Origin: a virus
Lineage: Duplodnaviria > Heunggongvirae > Uroviricota > Caudoviricetes
IMG/VR virus record: IMGVR_UViG_2541047897_000010
Length of the DNA stretch: 41,642 nt
Direction: 5' to 3' (one strand)
Shown here: positions 1 through 41,266 of the stretch, one piece after another
How the letters are laid out: each line of letters begins with the position of its first letter
Position numbering within the stretch: position 1 is the first letter of the stretch
The notes under the pieces: generated by a model
The model's input: the letters and a program-made list of their open reading frames with translations, nothing else
The model's database searches: none
Told to the model about the DNA's origin: nothing
Program-made: the position numbers and the translations under genes

Positions 1-474
1 ATGTACAGTCCGGTACAAATAGCCAATAAATTCATAACGTTGGGAAACCAACATCATAATCCTCTGACCCACATGCAACTGCAGAAGCTTACTTATATTG
101 CCCATGGTTACTATTTAGCATTAACAGGTAAGCCTTTGCTCAATGAATGTGTCTCCGCGTGGAAGTACGGTCCAGTTATTCCTGGAATGTACGATGCTTT
201 CAAAGACTATGGGAATAAACCTGTTACGAATGTAGCAGTAGCTCCTTTTGGTGGCATCGTTACTATGGATCCGCAAGCAGAGAGCATTATCGGGGCTGTT
301 TATAAGTTTTACGGCTCGAAAAATGGAATTGAGTTATCAACTCTAACTCATATGCCAGGTACGCCTTGGTCACAAGCTTATAATGGTATTGGCTCGTCAA
401 TCATCTCAAATGATGCGATCAAGGCTTATTATCATGATTTATTGAATAACCGACAGCAATGTCAGGGCCTCTGA
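1..474 (+). CDS. Panacea/DUF4065-domain protein (SocA/PanA-like putative antitoxin or Abi component); upstream context not visible
   Basis: 157-aa ORF with motifs recalled for DUF4065 (KLQKLTYIAHGYYLA, WKYGPVIPGMYD, THMPGTPW); AT-rich DNA. Confidence 0.6.
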   Translation: MYSPVQIANKFITLGNQHHNPLTHMQLQKLTYIAHGYYLALTGKPLLNECVSAWKYGPVIPGMYDAFKDYGNKPVTNVAVAPFGGIVTMDPQAESIIGAVYKFYGSKNGIELSTLTHMPGTPWSQAYNGIGSSIISNDAIKAYYHDLLNNRQQCQGL

Positions 475-495
475 AAAGTAATATTCAGGGATGAC

Positions 496-1044
496 ATGTC
501 TCACAATTCAGATATTTATAAACTTATCGGAGCGGCCGCAGGTGTTGAAAATGGTCGCTCTGAAGCATCCTTAAACTCTACTGACAGTCAAGAACAGGTT
601 TTTAAATCTGCATTTGAGCCGTCTAATCATGAGAGCGACGATGATTCTTCTTCAGAAAATAAAGCTATTCTGGAGGCAGAAGAGTTTGGTTCTAATACTG
701 GTGCATTGCATGAGTTTATGCAGCAGAACAGAATGGACAGTCTTCAAGCTCAGCTTGATATGCTCAAATCACAAGTACGGGATAAGATAGCTGACGCAAC
801 TGGTAAAGAAATAGACAATGAGCTTCGGACAAAAATGGCCTCATTCACGGTTTGGTTTATGTCGTGTTGGTGCTTATTCGTTGTCGCAATGTTTACATCG
901 TTTCTTATTGCACATGAAGGAAAGCCTCCAGTTGAAGCGATCGTTGCATTACTAGGTACAAGTACAATTAGTATTGTTGGTTTGGTTGGTTTCGTTGTTA
1001 GTGGATTGTTCAAATCAAGAAAAGATAGTGATAAAGAAAAATAA
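496..1044 (+). CDS. Small membrane protein, acidic N-terminal region and two C-terminal transmembrane helices; candidate toxin/effector partner of the Panacea protein
   Basis: 182-aa ORF 22 nt downstream of the Panacea gene; AGGGA SD 5 nt before ATG; hydrophobic stretches FTVWFMSCWCLFVVAMFTSFLIA and IVALLGTSTISIVGLVGFVV. Confidence 0.5.
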   Translation: MSHNSDIYKLIGAAAGVENGRSEASLNSTDSQEQVFKSAFEPSNHESDDDSSSENKAILEAEEFGSNTGALHEFMQQNRMDSLQAQLDMLKSQVRDKIADATGKEIDNELRTKMASFTVWFMSCWCLFVVAMFTSFLIAHEGKPPVEAIVALLGTSTISIVGLVGFVVSGLFKSRKDSDKEK

Positions 1045-1075
1045 CCCGTACATATACGGGTTATCCATAGTTTTA
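1043..1075. terminator. Bidirectional rho-independent terminator between convergent genes
   Basis: Perfect 8-bp stem AACCCGTA/TACGGGTT (1043-1050, 1055-1062) with 4-nt loop, T-rich on both sides. Confidence 0.5.
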
Positions 1076-1077
1076 GT

Positions 1078-1350
1078 TTAGTTATATTTTTGTTTTTCCG
1101 TTCTGACTTTTTCCCACTCAGCTCGCCCTTCTTCCCGTCTTTTGTCAATATATTCCGCAAGATCCTGAATGTTGATGCAGCGTTTTGCTTTTTGTGATGT
1201 ACCGATGCGATATGTAGGTACAGGCAACTTACAAGCGTTTGCTTTTGCTTCTGCTGTGGCTGGACTCATACCAAAGTATTTTTGACTAACTGCTGAGAGT
1301 TCAATGTTAGGGGTATTGAATTCAGCCATCAGTAAAAACAAGGTGTTCAT
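1078..1350 (-). CDS. PrtN-like / excisionase-like small DNA-binding protein
   Basis: ORF with start MNTLFLLMAEF at 1350 (GGAG 6 nt upstream); sequence pattern recalled for pyocin-activator PrtN family; ORF track gives a longer version from 1377. Confidence 0.45.
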   Translation of the reverse strand: MNTLFLLMAEFNTPNIELSAVSQKYFGMSPATAEAKANACKLPVPTYRIGTSQKAKRCINIQDLAEYIDKRREEGRAEWEKVRTEKQKYN

Positions 1351-5723: not shown

Positions 5724-6398
5724 TTAGGCCTTTATTTTGTATCTTCTTGGTTTTCCTGAGAAAATTACTGTACCAATTATAGAGCAATTACCGTTGATCT
5801 TAATGTAAGGTTCAGGCCAGTTTGGGTTTAATGCTTTGAGGTAACGCTGTGTTCCATCTTCTATCAACCGCTTAAAGGTGGTTTCGCCTGTATCGTGCAT
5901 CAATGCAATAACGTCGTCACCGTGGCAGGCAGGGACTTCAGGATCTACAAAAATCATGTCTCCCGGGCGGTACTCATCAATCATTGAATCACCAATCACC
6001 CGCAAGATATAAGTCATTTCGCCACAGGGTACAGGGCAGGGATAAGTTTCTGCTGTGCTCAAATCAACCTCAGAATAGCCAACTTCTTTCCATGCTCCGG
6101 CCTGTACCCATGATATGACAGGGACTAACGTTATTTGTTTGTTAGTAATTGAAACATCAGGTTTTTTTGTGATGTTTGTTGTCTGGTGTTCTTGATCAAG
6201 CCATCCGACAGGCAGGTCGAAACATTTTTCGATGTGCCGTGCCATGCTGTCACCGATATTTTTAGTAGCACCATCTCCCATAAACCTGCTGGTCTGGGTT
6301 GGCTCGCGATCAATCATGGTGGCAAAGGAAGAATTCCCGCCAACACCATCTCTCAGTTTTCTGGCGTTAGACCGCCGGATGTCATGGACTGTTTTCAT
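5724..6398 (-). CDS. cI: CI-type prophage repressor (HTH plus S24 LexA-like autopeptidase domain)
   Basis: 224 aa; C-terminal S24-like region (VIGDSM...GD.I.VD); divergent to cro-like gene. Confidence 0.75.
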   Translation of the reverse strand: MKTVHDIRRSNARKLRDGVGGNSSFATMIDREPTQTSRFMGDGATKNIGDSMARHIEKCFDLPVGWLDQEHQTTNITKKPDVSITNKQITLVPVISWVQAGAWKEVGYSEVDLSTAETYPCPVPCGEMTYILRVIGDSMIDEYRPGDMIFVDPEVPACHGDDVIALMHDTGETTFKRLIEDGTQRYLKALNPNWPEPYIKINGNCSIIGTVIFSGKPRRYKIKA

Positions 6399-35496: not shown

Positions 35497-35940
35497 ATGA
35501 ATAAATATTTTTATGATGTATCTACAAATGCTTTCTATCCGATAGCTATGAAGGAAATTTATGAATCAAATGGAATTAATTTTGACAATGCTAAGGAGGT
35601 TGATGAAAAACTATTTATTGAGTATTCAGGCGAACCACCGAAAGGGAAAATCCGCATTGCTGGTGAAGATGGTTTTCCTGCCTGGGGTGATATTCCGCCG
35701 CCAACGCACGATAAACTTGTTGCAGCAACTGAAGCACAAAAACAACTGCTAATCGACCAGGCTAACGAGTACATGAACAGCAAGCAATGGCCGGGAAAAG
35801 CTGCAATGGGACGGCTGAAAGATGCCGAAAAGGTACAGTATAACGCGTGGCTGGATTACCTGGACGCACTGGAGCTGGTTGATCCCTCCAGTGCTCCAGA
35901 TATTGAATGGCCTACGCCTCCGGCAGTTCAGGCCAGATGA
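35497..35940 (+). CDS. Tail fibre assembly protein (Tfa), expressed orientation
   Basis: ATG 35497; C-terminal conserved Tfa-like region (...YNAWLDYLDALELVD...). Confidence 0.65.
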   Translation: MNKYFYDVSTNAFYPIAMKEIYESNGINFDNAKEVDEKLFIEYSGEPPKGKIRIAGEDGFPAWGDIPPPTHDKLVAATEAQKQLLIDQANEYMNSKQWPGKAAMGRLKDAEKVQYNAWLDYLDALELVDPSSAPDIEWPTPPAVQAR

Positions 35941-36505
35941 CATTCGGCGCGGTGCTGGTATCTGTTGCCGTCACCGCGTCAATGTAATCCAGCACAGCGT
36001 TAAGCCGGGTTGTTTCTGCCTGCATCAGCTTCCGTCCGGCCTGTGATTTCAGTTGAATCAGACTGATGGAAGCCATTGCAGCATCAATCAGCGACTGGCG
36101 CTGTGCTTCTGCCGCTTCTACTGCGGCGCTATGCTGTGCCTCGGTATCCGTCACCCATTTCTCACCATCCCATTTATCGTATGGCGTTAACGGTGAAAGC
36201 GTGACATAACCGTCTTTGATGGCACCGATATAATCCACTGTAACAGCTGCGCCATTTTCAGTTGAGTAAACGGTCTCATTGCGATGGTCTTCTTCATGGC
36301 TCCATCCCTTACCCGTAAATACTGCCACTTTTCCCGGAATGTTTTCGCCCGGGTCAATACCAGTGGAACAGGCGGGTATACTTACGCCAGTATTAATATA
36401 TTCATCAGACCAGCCGGTATATTCATACGTTACTGCATTATAATAAAAACAACGCATATCGCCCGGCACTGTAGCCAGCCCATTTTCATCAAAAACAGGT
36501 TTCAT
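35912..36505 (-). CDS. Alternative tail fibre assembly protein (Tfa prime), silent orientation
   Basis: 197 aa on opposite strand; C-terminal region (...LNAVLDYIDAVTATD...) parallels Tfa. Confidence 0.6.
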   Translation of the reverse strand: MKPVFDENGLATVPGDMRCFYYNAVTYEYTGWSDEYINTGVSIPACSTGIDPGENIPGKVAVFTGKGWSHEEDHRNETVYSTENGAAVTVDYIGAIKDGYVTLSPLTPYDKWDGEKWVTDTEAQHSAAVEAAEAQRQSLIDAAMASISLIQLKSQAGRKLMQAETTRLNAVLDYIDAVTATDTSTAPNVIWPELPEA

Positions 36506-37077
36506 TATTTAGCCCTCACCAGAAAGTTAAATGCAATATTTCGTGGACGGGTTTCTGTACCTACATGTCCACTAATTTCACCATAACGTTTAACACTACG
36601 AGAGCTAAGAGCTCGTAGTGAGGAAGGCACCTTAAGACCGGGTTCGTCCGTTTTAACTATTCCCCCGTCACCATATGTAGCCAGTATTCCTGGGTTTACT
36701 CCTTCCCGTGCACTTCCTGCAGCAAGCCCGTCCCCCGTCCACAATTCCATATTGTGTGCATGATCCATAATTGTGTGTGATTGCCCTGAAAGTAGGGTAC
36801 GTCCGACATCAATCCCGCGCCCATCATCCCAGATACGAATGAAATCACCCCGTGCGTCAGGTAATGCTAGCGCCGGAAACACTTTCGCCAGCACAGGGTA
36901 ATCAGTGGCAGAGAATTTCGCGCCGTTGAACTTCAAAAACACCATACTGGACCAACTGTCGATTACAGTATTTGGCATTGCGGCGGACGGCCAGAAGAAC
37001 GGAACGCCAATAGCTGGAGCACCTTCTCCCAAACCAACGTTTAAGAAAATGCAGAGATTATGGCTAACTGGCATCAT
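36505..37077 (-). CDS. Alternative tail-fibre C-terminal coding segment (promoterless; fused to constant N-terminus after inversion)
   Basis: Reverse ORF whose N-terminal codons (..NVGLGEG..) are encoded by the right crossover site, mirroring ENLGLGT at the left site. Confidence 0.5.
   Translation of the reverse strand: MMPVSHNLCIFLNVGLGEGAPAIGVPFFWPSAAMPNTVIDSWSSMVFLKFNGAKFSATDYPVLAKVFPALALPDARGDFIRIWDDGRGIDVGRTLLSGQSHTIMDHAHNMELWTGDGLAAGSAREGVNPGILATYGDGGIVKTDEPGLKVPSSLRALSSRSVKRYGEISGHVGTETRPRNIAFNFLVRAK
37024..37049. repeat. Right inversion crossover site (gix/hix-like)
   Basis: TTCTCCCAAACCAACGTTTAAGAAAA, reverse complement of left site with identical core CCCAAACCAA-G-TTT. Confidence 0.55.
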
Positions 37078-37104
37078 CCCCGGTTTTTACTCAGGGGAAT
37101 GCTC

Positions 37105-37662
37105 ATGCTTATTGGCTATGTCCGCGTATCAACAAATGACCAGAATACGGAATTGCAGCGTAATGCGCTGGAGTGTGCAGGATGTGAGCTGATTTTTGAA
37201 GATAAGATCAGCGGCACTAAGTCCGACCGACCGGGACTGAAAAAACTGCTCAGAACATTATCAGCAGGTGACACTCTGGTAGTCTGGAAACTGGACCGAC
37301 TGGGGCGCAGTATGCGGCATCTTGTCGTGCTGGTGGAGGAGTTGCGCGAACGTGGCGTTAATTTTCGCAGCCTGACGGATGCTATTGATACCAGCACACC
37401 AATGGGGCGCTTTTTCTTTCATGTGATGGGTGCCCTGGCTGAAATGGAGCGAGAGCTTATTGTCGAACGTACTAGGGCGGGCTTTGCCGCAGCACGACAA
37501 GAAGGGAGGAATGGTGGGCGAAAGCCAAAGCTGACAGTAGAACAATGGGAGCAGGCTGGCAGGTTGATTGAATCGGGAATATATCAGCAGCAAGTCGCAC
37601 TGATTTATGATCTGGGTATTTCAACGGTGTATAAAAAATTCCCTGTAGCAAGTAAACCATAA
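37105..37662 (+). CDS. pin: Serine DNA invertase (Gin/Pin/Hin family)
   Basis: N-terminus MLIGYVRVSTNDQNT...; near-collinear with recalled Gin/Pin sequences; C-terminal HTH. Confidence 0.85.
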   Translation: MLIGYVRVSTNDQNTELQRNALECAGCELIFEDKISGTKSDRPGLKKLLRTLSAGDTLVVWKLDRLGRSMRHLVVLVEELRERGVNFRSLTDAIDTSTPMGRFFFHVMGALAEMERELIVERTRAGFAAARQEGRNGGRKPKLTVEQWEQAGRLIESGIYQQQVALIYDLGISTVYKKFPVASKP

Positions 37663-37688: not shown

Positions 37689-38384
37689 TTATGCACTATT
37701 TTTAGGTCTTGTAACCCGAGGTGGGAGTTGTTTGGTTATATGTTCAAGTGATTTTTTGCCCAAGATAGTTCTTTGGACAAAACTTTCTATAGCTTCTAGC
37801 ATTTGTTCGAACTCACTTTTATTCGGGCTCCAACTGCGATGTGCGGCGGCGTTTCCTGCATCAATTACAGAAGATATAACGCATGCCTCAGTGTCGCCTA
37901 TGACTCCATCTTGTTTTAATTTTTCAACTTTTTCACCAAGCGGCAAACCGGGGTGAATTTGTAACAGTTCAGCAGTTCGATCAAAAATCGTCCGTAAACC
38001 GATGGACGAAAGGATGAAATGGTCAGAAGTATATGAAGAATACATTTCATTAAATATTTGAAAGAGCTGACGATCAACTGATTCAAGCTTGGATAACCAT
38101 ATCGGAGCTTGAAATGTTTCAGCGGCAGGATAGGTAGTGATCATATCTATAGGCGTTTCTACAAATTCACCATCACGATATTCGTGGGTAGTATGCTCAC
38201 TGAAGTGTTCGTTGTGGTGATAGAAGACAGTATCACAGCCATTGCATTGGAGTAGGTGATGGTAATGGTACCCATAAACTGGATATTGGGAATCCTCCCA
38301 GCTAGTGGTTAGCTTCCCATGCACAGTGCAGTTACGTAACCCACCGCATGTAGGGCAAAGAGCCTTGAGTATTTCCTTTTTCAT
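37689..38384 (-). CDS. Zinc-ribbon + DUF4145-like protein; candidate phage-defence/exclusion gene
   Basis: 231 aa in AT-rich island between invertase and dinI/int; N-terminal CPTC...CNGC; C-terminal helical domain with IDAGNAAAH motif recalled for DUF4145. Confidence 0.5.
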   Translation of the reverse strand: MKKEILKALCPTCGGLRNCTVHGKLTTSWEDSQYPVYGYHYHHLLQCNGCDTVFYHHNEHFSEHTTHEYRDGEFVETPIDMITTYPAAETFQAPIWLSKLESVDRQLFQIFNEMYSSYTSDHFILSSIGLRTIFDRTAELLQIHPGLPLGEKVEKLKQDGVIGDTEACVISSVIDAGNAAAHRSWSPNKSEFEQMLEAIESFVQRTILGKKSLEHITKQLPPRVTRPKNSA

Positions 38385-38732: not shown

Positions 38733-38981
38733 TTAGTGAACAAACCACTCGTCAGCAGATTCCCAGGTATCTTTCAGAGTCTCCTGAACAAAAGTTTTTG
38801 CAGAATCCTTATCTGCGGTGCGTGTAACAGAAAGGCCATCATTGCTGGTGGCTTTTACTAACACCTCAACATCGTCATAACGCTTACTGATGCGTCGGGT
38901 TAATTCTTCCTTTAACGCATCCACAGCACCGGTTGGCATTTTAGTCATTTTTTCTTTGGCTATGCAGATTTCAATACGCAT
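38733..38981 (-). CDS. dinI: DinI-like SOS-regulated protein
   Basis: 82 aa; MRIEI...[12 protein letters not shown] closely parallels DinI; tandem LexA boxes immediately upstream. Confidence 0.75.
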
Positions 38982-39042: not shown

Positions 39043-40140
39043 TCAAGAGGTCTTATTTCTGCTCCTTTGGAGCTCTTCAAAACGATTATGTAAAGATTTC
39101 GGATACAGTTCGGTATATACCTGCCATAGCACGTTTAATGAACGATGCCCTGTAACCTGGGCGACTTCCTCAATACTAAAACCAGCCTCAAATAAGCGAC
39201 TTGCCCCTTCTCTACGCAAATCATGGTATCGCAGATCCTTAATACCTAATTTGCTTCTTACTCTCTGAAATCCCGCAGTAACAGAAGTGCTGTTATATGG
39301 AAAAATGAATTCCGATTTTTGGGGCTGTCGTTGGACGATATCCCAGGCTTCCCCAAGCAAGGCTACTTTCATGTGGTTGCCTTCCTTTTTGCGTGGATCT
39401 TTCCTGTCTCTTACGAGTATAGATTTTTGTTCCTGGTCGAGATCTTCCCATCGTAACCGGCATACTTCTCCGATTCGCATACAGGACCATACAGAAAATT
39501 TGAGGATATCAACGAACGGAATTTTTGAGCATTTATGAGTAGATCGTTGTTGAAGGCCTGCAATGAGCATGTCCAGTTCATCAGATGCTGGTCTACGATT
39601 ACGACGGTTTGATTTACCAATCAAACCAAGTTTAAGTAGATATGGGCGAGCGCTTTTCGCCGGGTTTGATGTGTAATTAATTCCGTATACAGGTTTGGCC
39701 GCATCCAGAACACTGCCAAGATAACTAACATCGTGGCTGACTGTTGCAGGACCTGCACCAGCGTTGTTTCTTAGCCTGCAATGTTCAATTACGTCATTTT
39801 CTGTCAGTTCAGATAGTTTGATCGCGGAGATGTCACTATCCATAAGCAGTTCCAGCACATATCTTTTAGTACGGCCTGCTTTACCTCCGGCATTTGGGTC
39901 ATTTAAATATTTGTGTAGTAAGTCACGGACTGTAAGTCCGTCAACTGCATTTGATGATGGAATGCCATATAGATCTAATTCCATCACTTTCTGTGTGCCC
40001 CATGTTTTGGCATGAGCATGTTTAGGGAATGTTTTGCTTTCCCTGTAAGTGATAACACCTTTTTCTTTGATAATCACATTACAGCGATAGCGTGGTGTGC
40101 CATCGGATTTTAGTCGTTTCTCTATGTTATAGTACGCCAT
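39043..40140 (-). CDS. int: Tyrosine integrase, dusA-associated type
   Basis: 365 aa with catalytic R...HDLRR...GHRSL...Y residues; divergent from and adjacent to dusA. Confidence 0.85.
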   Translation of the reverse strand: MAYYNIEKRLKSDGTPRYRCNVIIKEKGVITYRESKTFPKHAHAKTWGTQKVMELDLYGIPSSNAVDGLTVRDLLHKYLNDPNAGGKAGRTKRYVLELLMDSDISAIKLSELTENDVIEHCRLRNNAGAGPATVSHDVSYLGSVLDAAKPVYGINYTSNPAKSARPYLLKLGLIGKSNRRNRRPASDELDMLIAGLQQRSTHKCSKIPFVDILKFSVWSCMRIGEVCRLRWEDLDQEQKSILVRDRKDPRKKEGNHMKVALLGEAWDIVQRQPQKSEFIFPYNSTSVTAGFQRVRSKLGIKDLRYHDLRREGASRLFEAGFSIEEVAQVTGHRSLNVLWQVYTELYPKSLHNRFEELQRSRNKTS

Positions 40141-40160
40141 TACACGACCTCGTTATTTCG

Positions 40161-40195
40161 GGTTCCCATAAAACGTGGGAACCTGTGCGGGAACC
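40161..40195. promoter_or_regulatory. Inverted plus direct repeats in int-dusA intergenic region (candidate integrase/regulator binding sites)
   Basis: GGTTCCCA-7nt-TGGGAACC then GGGAACC. Confidence 0.3.
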
Positions 40196-40228
40196 TAACG
40201 CGAGAAAAATAGCCTGAAATGTTCAAAA

Positions 40229-41266
40229 ATGCACGATAATCATGAAACAAAAAAAATTAATCAAACCAGCGTGATGCCTGAAAAAACTGGTGTTTACTGG
40301 AATTCTCGGTTTAGCATTGCTCCTATGCTCGACTGGACGGACAGACATTGCCGTTATTTCCTGCGTCTGCTTTCCCGCAATACGTTGCTGTATACCGAAA
40401 TGGTGACCACAGGGGCGATTATTCACGGTAAAGGTGATTACCTGGCGTACAGTGAAGAAGAACATCCGGTAGCGTTGCAACTCGGGGGTAGCGATCCGGC
40501 GGCGCTGGCACAGTGTGCGAAGCTGGCAGAAGCGCGTGGATACGATGAGATCAACCTGAATGTCGGCTGCCCGTCTGACCGGGTGCAGAACGGCATGTTT
40601 GGTGCGTGTCTGATGGGTAATGCGCAGCTGGTTGCCGACTGCGTGAAAGCGATGCGCGATGTGGTGTCGATTCCGGTGACGGTGAAGACGCGTATTGGCA
40701 TCGATGATCAGGACAGCTATGAATTTCTCTGCGATTTCATCAACACCGTTTCCGGCAAAGGTGAGTGTGAGATGTTCATCATCCACGCACGTAAAGCCTG
40801 GCTTTCTGGGTTAAGTCCGAAAGAAAACCGTGAGATCCCGCCGCTCGATTATCCGCGTGTGTATCAACTGAAGCGTGACTTTCCGCATCTGACGATGTCG
40901 ATTAACGGTGGTATCAAGTCGCTGGAAGAAGCTAAAGCGCATTTGCAACATATGGATGGCGTGATGGTCGGGCGCGAGGCGTATCAGAATCCGGGTATTC
41001 TGGCGGCGGTAGACCGAGAGATTTTTGGTTCCTCGGATATTGATGCCGATCCGGTGGCGGTAGTGCGCGCCATGTATCCGTACATTGAGCGTGAACTCAG
41101 CCAGGGTACGTATCTCGGCCATATTACCCGGCATATGCTGGGCTTGTTCCAGGGTATTCCTGGCGCGCGGCAGTGGCGGCGTTATTTAAGTGAAAATGCC
41201 CATAAAGCGGGTGCAGACATTAATGTGCTGGAACACGCGCTCAAACTGGTGGCGGATAAGCGTTAA
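40229..41266 (+). CDS. dusA: tRNA-dihydrouridine synthase A
   Basis: 345-aa ORF with Dus TIM-barrel motifs ([21 protein letters not shown]); alternative start at 40274 (MPEKT) possible; 5' end may be phage-supplied. Confidence 0.85.

Follow-up and report, generated by a model that had tools for sequence, protein, structure and literature searches.

The stretch of DNA analysed here (the window; 41,642 nt, Caudoviricetes, IMG/VR record IMGVR_UViG_2541047897_000010) consists of a lambdoid prophage integrated at dusA, together with a short piece of host DNA, and its first two genes, panA and panT, very probably constitute the PanAT module of Escherichia coli, a two-gene toxin-antitoxin (TA) operon. 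Positions 1–1400 of the window matched two complete E. coli chromosomes at 100% identity, including that of E. coli 19-5, and on the identical DNA the RefSeq annotation gives the first open reading frame (ORF) as WP_000287252.1 ("Panacea domain-containing protein") and the second as WP_021563277.1. The pair is already known, as it was published in 2022 as a Panacea antitoxin neutralising a pore-forming membrane toxin. Features of the locus and of the prophage ends are collected in Table 1.

Table 1. Features of the panAT locus and the prophage ends, in window positions; L002 denotes the identical locus.
Feature	Position	Strand	Description
panA	1–474	+	157-aa stand-alone Panacea (DUF4065) antitoxin; its ATG is the first codon of the window
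Spacer	475–495	+	21 nt; Shine-Dalgarno-like AGGGA at 487–491, 4 nt before the panT ATG
panT	496–1044	+	182-aa membrane toxin, Kurata T3 cluster, allele WP_021563277.1
Hairpin	~1039–1066	both	10–12 bp; overlaps the panT stop codon; between convergent panT (+) and xis (−)
xis	1078–1377	−	PrtN-family excisionase; PF11112, E 3.9e-23; phrog_1300 excisionase, E 6.2e-40; last gene of the leftward early operon
Tyrosine integrase	39043–40140	−	PF00589
GGGAACCT repeats	40177–40184, 40189–40196		att arm, right end; inverted GGGTTCCC at 40160–40167
dusA	40229–41266	+	PF01207; pspG also at right end
attR	crossover near ATGCTCGA, 40325–40332		inside the phage-supplied 5′ end of dusA; attL versus attR comparison (L002 5592–5760)

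The panA and panT genes and their operon

The initial annotation had read the first ORF as a Panacea (DUF4065) protein, and the profile search bore this out, with residues 27–123 of PanA matching Pfam PF13274 SocA_Panacea (E-value 5.9e-18, 66.3 bits, curated cut-off 25.7). PanA also matched the phage family phrog_1281 (E 6.6e-49). The Panacea signature motif GPV, which is critical in neutralisation (Kurata et al. 2022, PMC8832971), corresponds to residues G57-P58-V59 of PanA and was invariant across the five divergent partners among the relatives compared. The protein has no hydrophobic segment and a pI of 8.5. An alternative in-frame ATG is located 15 nt 5′ of the panA start (L002 5986–6003) and would result in a 162-aa product, which is how the gene is annotated in one GenBank record; a GAGGAGG Shine-Dalgarno sequence between the two candidate ATG codons favours the 157-aa start.

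PanT was matched end to end by the phage family phrog_13343 (E 1.9e-113). The acidic N-terminus and two C-terminal transmembrane (TM) helices that had been read from its 182 residues were confirmed by charge and hydropathy: residues 1–115 carry a net charge of −11, and hydrophobic segments were found at ca. 116–139 and 146–171 (Kyte-Doolittle, 19-residue windows, ≥1.6). Pfam returned no family above cut-off for PanT, and no SocB-like family; the weak matches to DUF2207_C and 7tm_6 were both below their cut-offs and reflect hydrophobic composition. In the AlphaFold2 model, of which the confidence was too low for a fold search (mean predicted local distance difference test, pLDDT, 59; ca. 77–85 over residues 110–140; predicted template modelling score, pTM, 0.28), a short helix at residues 4–14 is followed by a disordered acidic stretch (16–53), a long helix (53–139) continuing into TM1, and TM2 (146–178).

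In the PanT family alignment (A3), TM2 (ALLGTSTISIVGLVGFVVSGLFK), which is rich in small residues, and the juxtamembrane, pre-TM motif G..IDN.LR were near-invariant down to about 32% overall identity, when the N-terminal ca. 100 residues were hypervariable in both length and sequence. Such a pattern fits a membrane-active core combined with a variable part that is open to the antitoxin.

The layout of the two genes is consistent with one bicistronic transcript. The gap of 22 nt reported in the initial annotation holds as a start-minus-end distance, the actual spacer being one nucleotide shorter (Table 1). The pair is AT-rich, as had been noted, with a GC percentage of 40.2 over positions 1–1044 versus 51.0 in the whole window. 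ORFs on the opposite strand within this stretch (e.g. 750–1160, minus strand, 136 aa) overlap two conserved genes that are under purifying selection.

A strong bidirectional terminator had been proposed at the end of the pair, of which the hairpin stood and the bidirectionality held only in part. The structure is stable on both strands (plus strand −12.7 kcal/mol, z −3.1; minus strand −14.3 kcal/mol, z −3.85), beating nearly all shuffled sequences, and was located at L002 7039–7066 by a terminator scan of the identical locus; however, a T-run directly follows the stem on the minus strand only (UUUUUCUUUAUC), the plus-strand tail being CCAUAGUUUU. With its proper T-run on the minus strand only, the hairpin looks like an intrinsic terminator that mainly serves the convergent, leftward xis transcript and is less suited to ending that of panAT.

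Upstream of the pair, a consensus sigma-70 promoter (TTGACA-16-TATAAT, 12/12 matches), invariant in seven alleles, was identified at L002 5816–5843. This site precedes window position 1 by about 185 to 158 bp and lies beyond the window but still within the prophage, at ca. 122 bp from attL. Judged from sequence only, panAT would probably be transcribed in the lysogen from this promoter of its own, about 157 bp upstream. The promoter is flanked by inverted ACAGTG/CACTGT repeats (L002 5775–5806) and followed by an imperfect palindrome at 5862–5879, all of which are candidate operators. Since the ACAGTG inverted repeats around the promoter are within the att arm, they could make panAT expression depend on whether the phage is integrated or excised; enrichment of the ACAGTG-type motif over the locus was not significant (6 versus 3.1 expected, equalled by 22 of 200 shuffles). 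The Rfam scan of the locus and its upstream leader, on both strands, returned a single sub-threshold chance match, and folding of the ca. 150-nt leader was no more stable than that of shuffled sequences (z −1.0), thus giving no evidence of a structured regulatory leader.

Match to the published E. coli PanAT pair and proposed mode of action

According to Table 1 of the work by Kurata et al. (PMC8832971), PanA(Esc. col.) of E. coli STEC O31 is WP_000287252.1, and its partner toxin is WP_000019185.1, with the mode of action "Membrane". The PanA of the window carries the same accession and is identical to this validated antitoxin. The dataset row of the same publication describes an antitoxin without N-terminal domain, toxin cluster T3, gene order A|T (antitoxin first), distance 22, and the result "TA", all in a pair labelled "NotPhage". 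Both the order and the distance agree with the window, and the toxins share the T3 architecture of a charged N-terminal region and C-terminal TM helices. The gene order relative to known pairs, which the initial annotation had left unresolved, is thereby answered by the literature, and the literature supports a T3-cluster PanT as the partner, which had likewise been left without a name. In addition, GenBank phage PhiR47_1 (PV340566.1, 99.1% identical) has the two genes labelled as "PanA antitoxin" and "PanT toxin".

The toxin of the window differs in accession from the one tested. We infer WP_021563277.1 to be an allele of WP_000019185.1 from its position, spacing, cluster description and neighbouring accessions, and not from direct alignment of the two. 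Sixteen annotated E. coli genome regions contained nine other accessions, including WP_000019187.1 (V35I in reference to the window toxin) and WP_000019186.1 (five substitutions), but not WP_000019185.1. In every region inspected, WP_000287252.1 was followed by a 182-aa allele (in one case 185 aa) that differed from the window toxin by 0–13 residues.

For PanT(Esc. col.), a T3-cluster protein with TM helices, toxicity in E. coli and neutralisation by the cognate PanA have been reported (PMC8832971). The toxin indiscriminately blocks transcription, translation and replication, depolarises the membrane as monitored with DiSC3(5), and makes cells permeable to SYTOX Green, in which the authors see "large pore formation" (PMC8832971). 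The initial proposals of a TA pair and of a membrane-depolarising toxin thus agree with what has been published on this antitoxin and on a toxin that is presumably allelic to that of the window (Kurata et al. 2022). PanAs reportedly neutralise their toxins without ClpXP or Lon (Kurata et al. 2022, PNAS 119:e2102212119).

Conservation of the locus is that of a two-gene unit. Among 5426 complete E. coli genomes, both genes were present in 79 of the 79 carriers of either, always on the chromosome, and a Panacea gene was located directly upstream on the same strand in all 64 informative PanT-family loci; of the three uninformative ones, one was on a contig that breaks off at the panT start, and two were matched over 32 residues of TM2 only. 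PanT homologues extend across Enterobacterales down to about 32% identity. In relatives, PanA identities of 75, 59, 45 and 48% are paired with PanT identities of 66, 48, 42 and 48%, respectively, and the two proteins thus diverge in step, which argues for a stable PanA-PanT lineage and not a recent partner swap. Both genes are under purifying selection, most panA alleles showing no nonsynonymous change against up to 11 synonymous ones, and panT having a ratio of nonsynonymous to synonymous polymorphism (pN/pS) of 0.10–0.27. Across loci L001–L011, the antitoxin is almost frozen (WP_000287252.1 is kept) and the toxin gains up to 13 amino-acid changes, those in TM1 being W120C, C124W, V130A, A131G/V and T134V.

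In the mode of action that we propose, PanT would insert in the inner membrane via its C-terminal helical hairpin, and toxin that is left unneutralised would depolarise and permeabilise the membrane so that all macromolecular synthesis stops, an outcome documented in the literature for the presumably allelic pair. PanA, acting as a stand-alone Panacea domain, would neutralise PanT, for which the literature likewise provides the demonstration. Neutralisation is most likely by direct binding of PanA to the N-terminal and juxtamembrane part of PanT, because ClpXP and Lon are dispensable and because a similar pair from Bartonella has been mapped so. In this Bartonella apis/choladocola pair, PanT(T12/D11):PanA, the antitoxin is likewise a stand-alone Panacea protein, and the toxin, which permeabilises the membrane, is charged in its N-terminal part and carries TM helices at the C-terminus. 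Its Panacea domain is predicted to sit on the unstructured N-terminal region and the short pre-TM helix of the toxin, which is supported by mutagenesis (Ernits et al. 2023, PMC10440598). The Bartonella toxin is, however, in a different sequence cluster, and homology with T3 is possible but unproven according to the authors (PMC8832971).

It is improbable that PanA acts on PanT indirectly, as a proteolytic adaptor of the type VI, SocA-like kind, instead of by stoichiometric binding. The Panacea domain is common to PanA and to Caulobacter SocA, which is a ClpXP adaptor, and the published pull-downs do not include the E. coli PanA-PanT pair. The protease independence of PanA neutralisation speaks against an adaptor, as do the stable complexes reported for all five pairs listed as validated (Kurata et al. 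2022) and the Panacea interface mutations that abolish neutralisation of the compositionally similar Bartonella membrane PanT. The Caulobacter SocAB system (type VI TA) shares with PanAT the Panacea/SocA domain of the antitoxin, whereas SocB is a replication inhibitor degraded through ClpXP and PanT is a membrane pore-former, of which the neutralisation by PanA is reportedly protease-independent. Assignment of the window pair to the SocAB type was rejected, as its toxin is a two-TM membrane protein with no SocB-like Pfam family, and protease independence has been reported.

Prophage setting and the cargo slot

The position of the pair at the prophage edge, beyond the early-left genes, was upheld: in the identical chromosome, attL and a displaced 5′ fragment of dusA are located about 307 bp upstream of the window start, and xis and the early-left genes follow panAT. 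The pair is thus just inside attL and convergent with xis and the early-left operon, when its promoter and attL are outside the window. Many IMG/VR contigs (L030, L035, L045 and others) begin, like the window, at the panA ATG or no more than one base away from it, which indicates that prophage boundary calling removed attL and the panAT promoter. The pair published from E. coli STEC O31 is listed as "NotPhage", yet here it is inside a dusA-integrated prophage and it is also present in the deposited phages PhiR47_1, 1720a-02 and phiSTEC1575-Stx2k.

As the integrase and excisionase genes are at opposite ends of the integrated prophage (Table 1), attP is flanked by int on one side and by panAT-xis on the other. 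The 5′ end of dusA is replaced by one that the phage brings. The GGGAACCT repeats at the right end also occur on the other att arm (L002 5750–5757), and they are candidate integrase arm-type sites, better candidates than the ACAGTG motif.

The slot between attP and xis is differently occupied in sibling phages. In the closely related PhiR40_1 (L023 222–1212) and PhiR55_1 (L024 206–1196), the same slot holds, in the same orientation as panAT, a pair annotated as YafM/YafO with a toxin of the YafO family (PF13957); these proteins are unrelated to PanAT, and the toxin is not a membrane protein. In mEp460 (L025 1531–2434), two unrelated small genes of 177 and 57 aa are present. These varied contents identify the slot as one for exchangeable cargo that is often TA-like. 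The panAT pair is accessory cargo of this kind, placed between attL/attP and xis, opposing the early-left operon and closed by the hairpin.

At the other end of the prophage, a Hin/Gin-type serine invertase gene (37060–37662, plus strand; PF00239, PF02796) adjoins a tail-fibre assembly gene (35912–36505, minus strand; PF02413), which suggests an invertible tail-fibre host-range switch. Beside these two genes is a 189-aa ORF without a Pfam family (36505–37077, minus strand). Genes for a DUF4145 protein without a PADLOC match (37689–38384, minus strand) and a DinI-family protein (38733–38981, minus strand) are located between the tail-fibre region and the integrase gene, and this region may be a second accessory locus.

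Defence neighbourhood and possible biological role

Distant relatives of PanA-PanT were found in P2-like prophages, in the interval from gpA to the portal gene. This interval is an anti-phage hotspot (Rousset et al. 2022), and "DUF4065 + hypothetical" is listed among the cargo of this hotspot in the supplementary table of that work. Neighbours of the relatives in the gpA-portal locus included a retron reverse transcriptase-Toprim, a cyclase of a cyclic oligonucleotide-based antiphage signalling system (CBASS) with a Cap15-like effector, AbiU, an OLD/GajA-like ATPase, PDC-S28, and an HNH protein, and one relative adjoins a type I restriction-modification system. The loci of the relatives are L018 3964–5724, L021 4051–5962, L064 2047–3945, L070 3304–5088, L077 4382–6865 and L016 3866–6495. 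At these loci, the relatives are either in the P2 gpA-portal hotspot or beside an antiterminator gene.

Because the relatives associate with defence genes, abortive infection or inter-phage competition is the best guess for the role of the pair: to judge from this genomic neighbourhood, loss or inactivation of PanA during infection would release PanT. As a plausible but tentative reading, the prophage PanAT may be an abortive-infection or superinfection-exclusion system that is constitutively expressed in the lysogen, driven by the pair's own promoter beside attL, with the Panacea domain as a sensor, so that an incoming phage inactivates or displaces PanA and PanT forms its pore. For comparison, RosmerTA (RmrTA) of Gordonia phage Kita is likewise made up of two genes on a phage, and its toxin too forms pores and depolarises the membrane; its antitoxin is, however, an ImmA-type protease/helix-turn-helix protein and not a Panacea protein, and anti-phage activity has been measured for RmrTA, whereas none has been reported for the PanAT pair.

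Several observations weigh against the overall picture drawn here. With regard to defence, the pair is not among the P2-hotspot systems reported as validated (Rousset et al. 2022), PADLOC-DB v2.0.0 gave no match to PanT and one chance-level match (10.8 bits) to PanA, and we found no paper with phage-challenge, anti-phage or abortive-infection data on this pair. With regard to the mode of action, the five PanAT pairs for which stable complexes were recovered by pull-down do not include that of E. coli (Kurata et al. 2022), and since the other toxin alleles differ from the window toxin by 1–13 residues, some of them in TM1, behaviour identical to that of the tested allele is assumed. As for expression, PanA has no DNA-binding domain through which it might regulate the operon, the putative panAT promoter is a match to the consensus only, and promoter-like sites in the region are as many as expected from shuffled sequence (6 versus 6.2).

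The main rival to a defence role is prophage maintenance, i.e. addiction by post-segregational killing through a longer-lived PanT, which we consider rather unlikely. It would suit a validated TA pair on a mobile element, beside an att site, in a slot where sibling phages hold a classical YafO-type TA pair. Roles of the addiction type close to rearrangement hotspots are discussed by Kurata et al., and about one fourth of the P2-hotspot cargo is of maintenance type (partition systems) according to Rousset et al. Against addiction, neutralisation is independent of ClpXP and Lon. Moreover, an integrated prophage is seldom lost, and the pair departs with the phage on excision. In the loci inspected, the relatives cluster with recognised defence genes, and not with partition genes.

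A holin/antiholin-like device for lysis timing is hardly credible: although PanT is small, has two TM helices and forms large pores, and in one prophage remnant (L013) a relative lies downstream of a holin gene at a distance of a few genes, the pair is att-proximal, between attL and xis, reads against the early-left operon and is distant from the late genes, it has no match to a holin family in Pfam, sibling phages have a YafO-type TA pair in its place, and its P2-like relatives are in the gpA-portal accessory hotspot, not in a lysis cassette. Membership in the holin/antiholin class was rejected on the grounds of family matches and location.

The properties that the initial annotation had put forward for testing, namely toxicity, rescue by the partner and loss of membrane potential, are already covered by published experiments, and the pair carries little weight as a discovery. 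The residual value is in the context, i.e. a validated pair is prophage cargo, it occupies a TA-prone slot, and its relatives are located in the P2 defence hotspot. The biological trigger of the "hyperpromiscuous" Panacea domain is unknown according to Ernits et al. (2023, PMC10440598), and if the sensing of incoming phages by PanA proves true, it would give the Panacea domain such a trigger. The prophage-borne E. coli PanAT would be a convenient model for studying both the defence role and the Panacea trigger.

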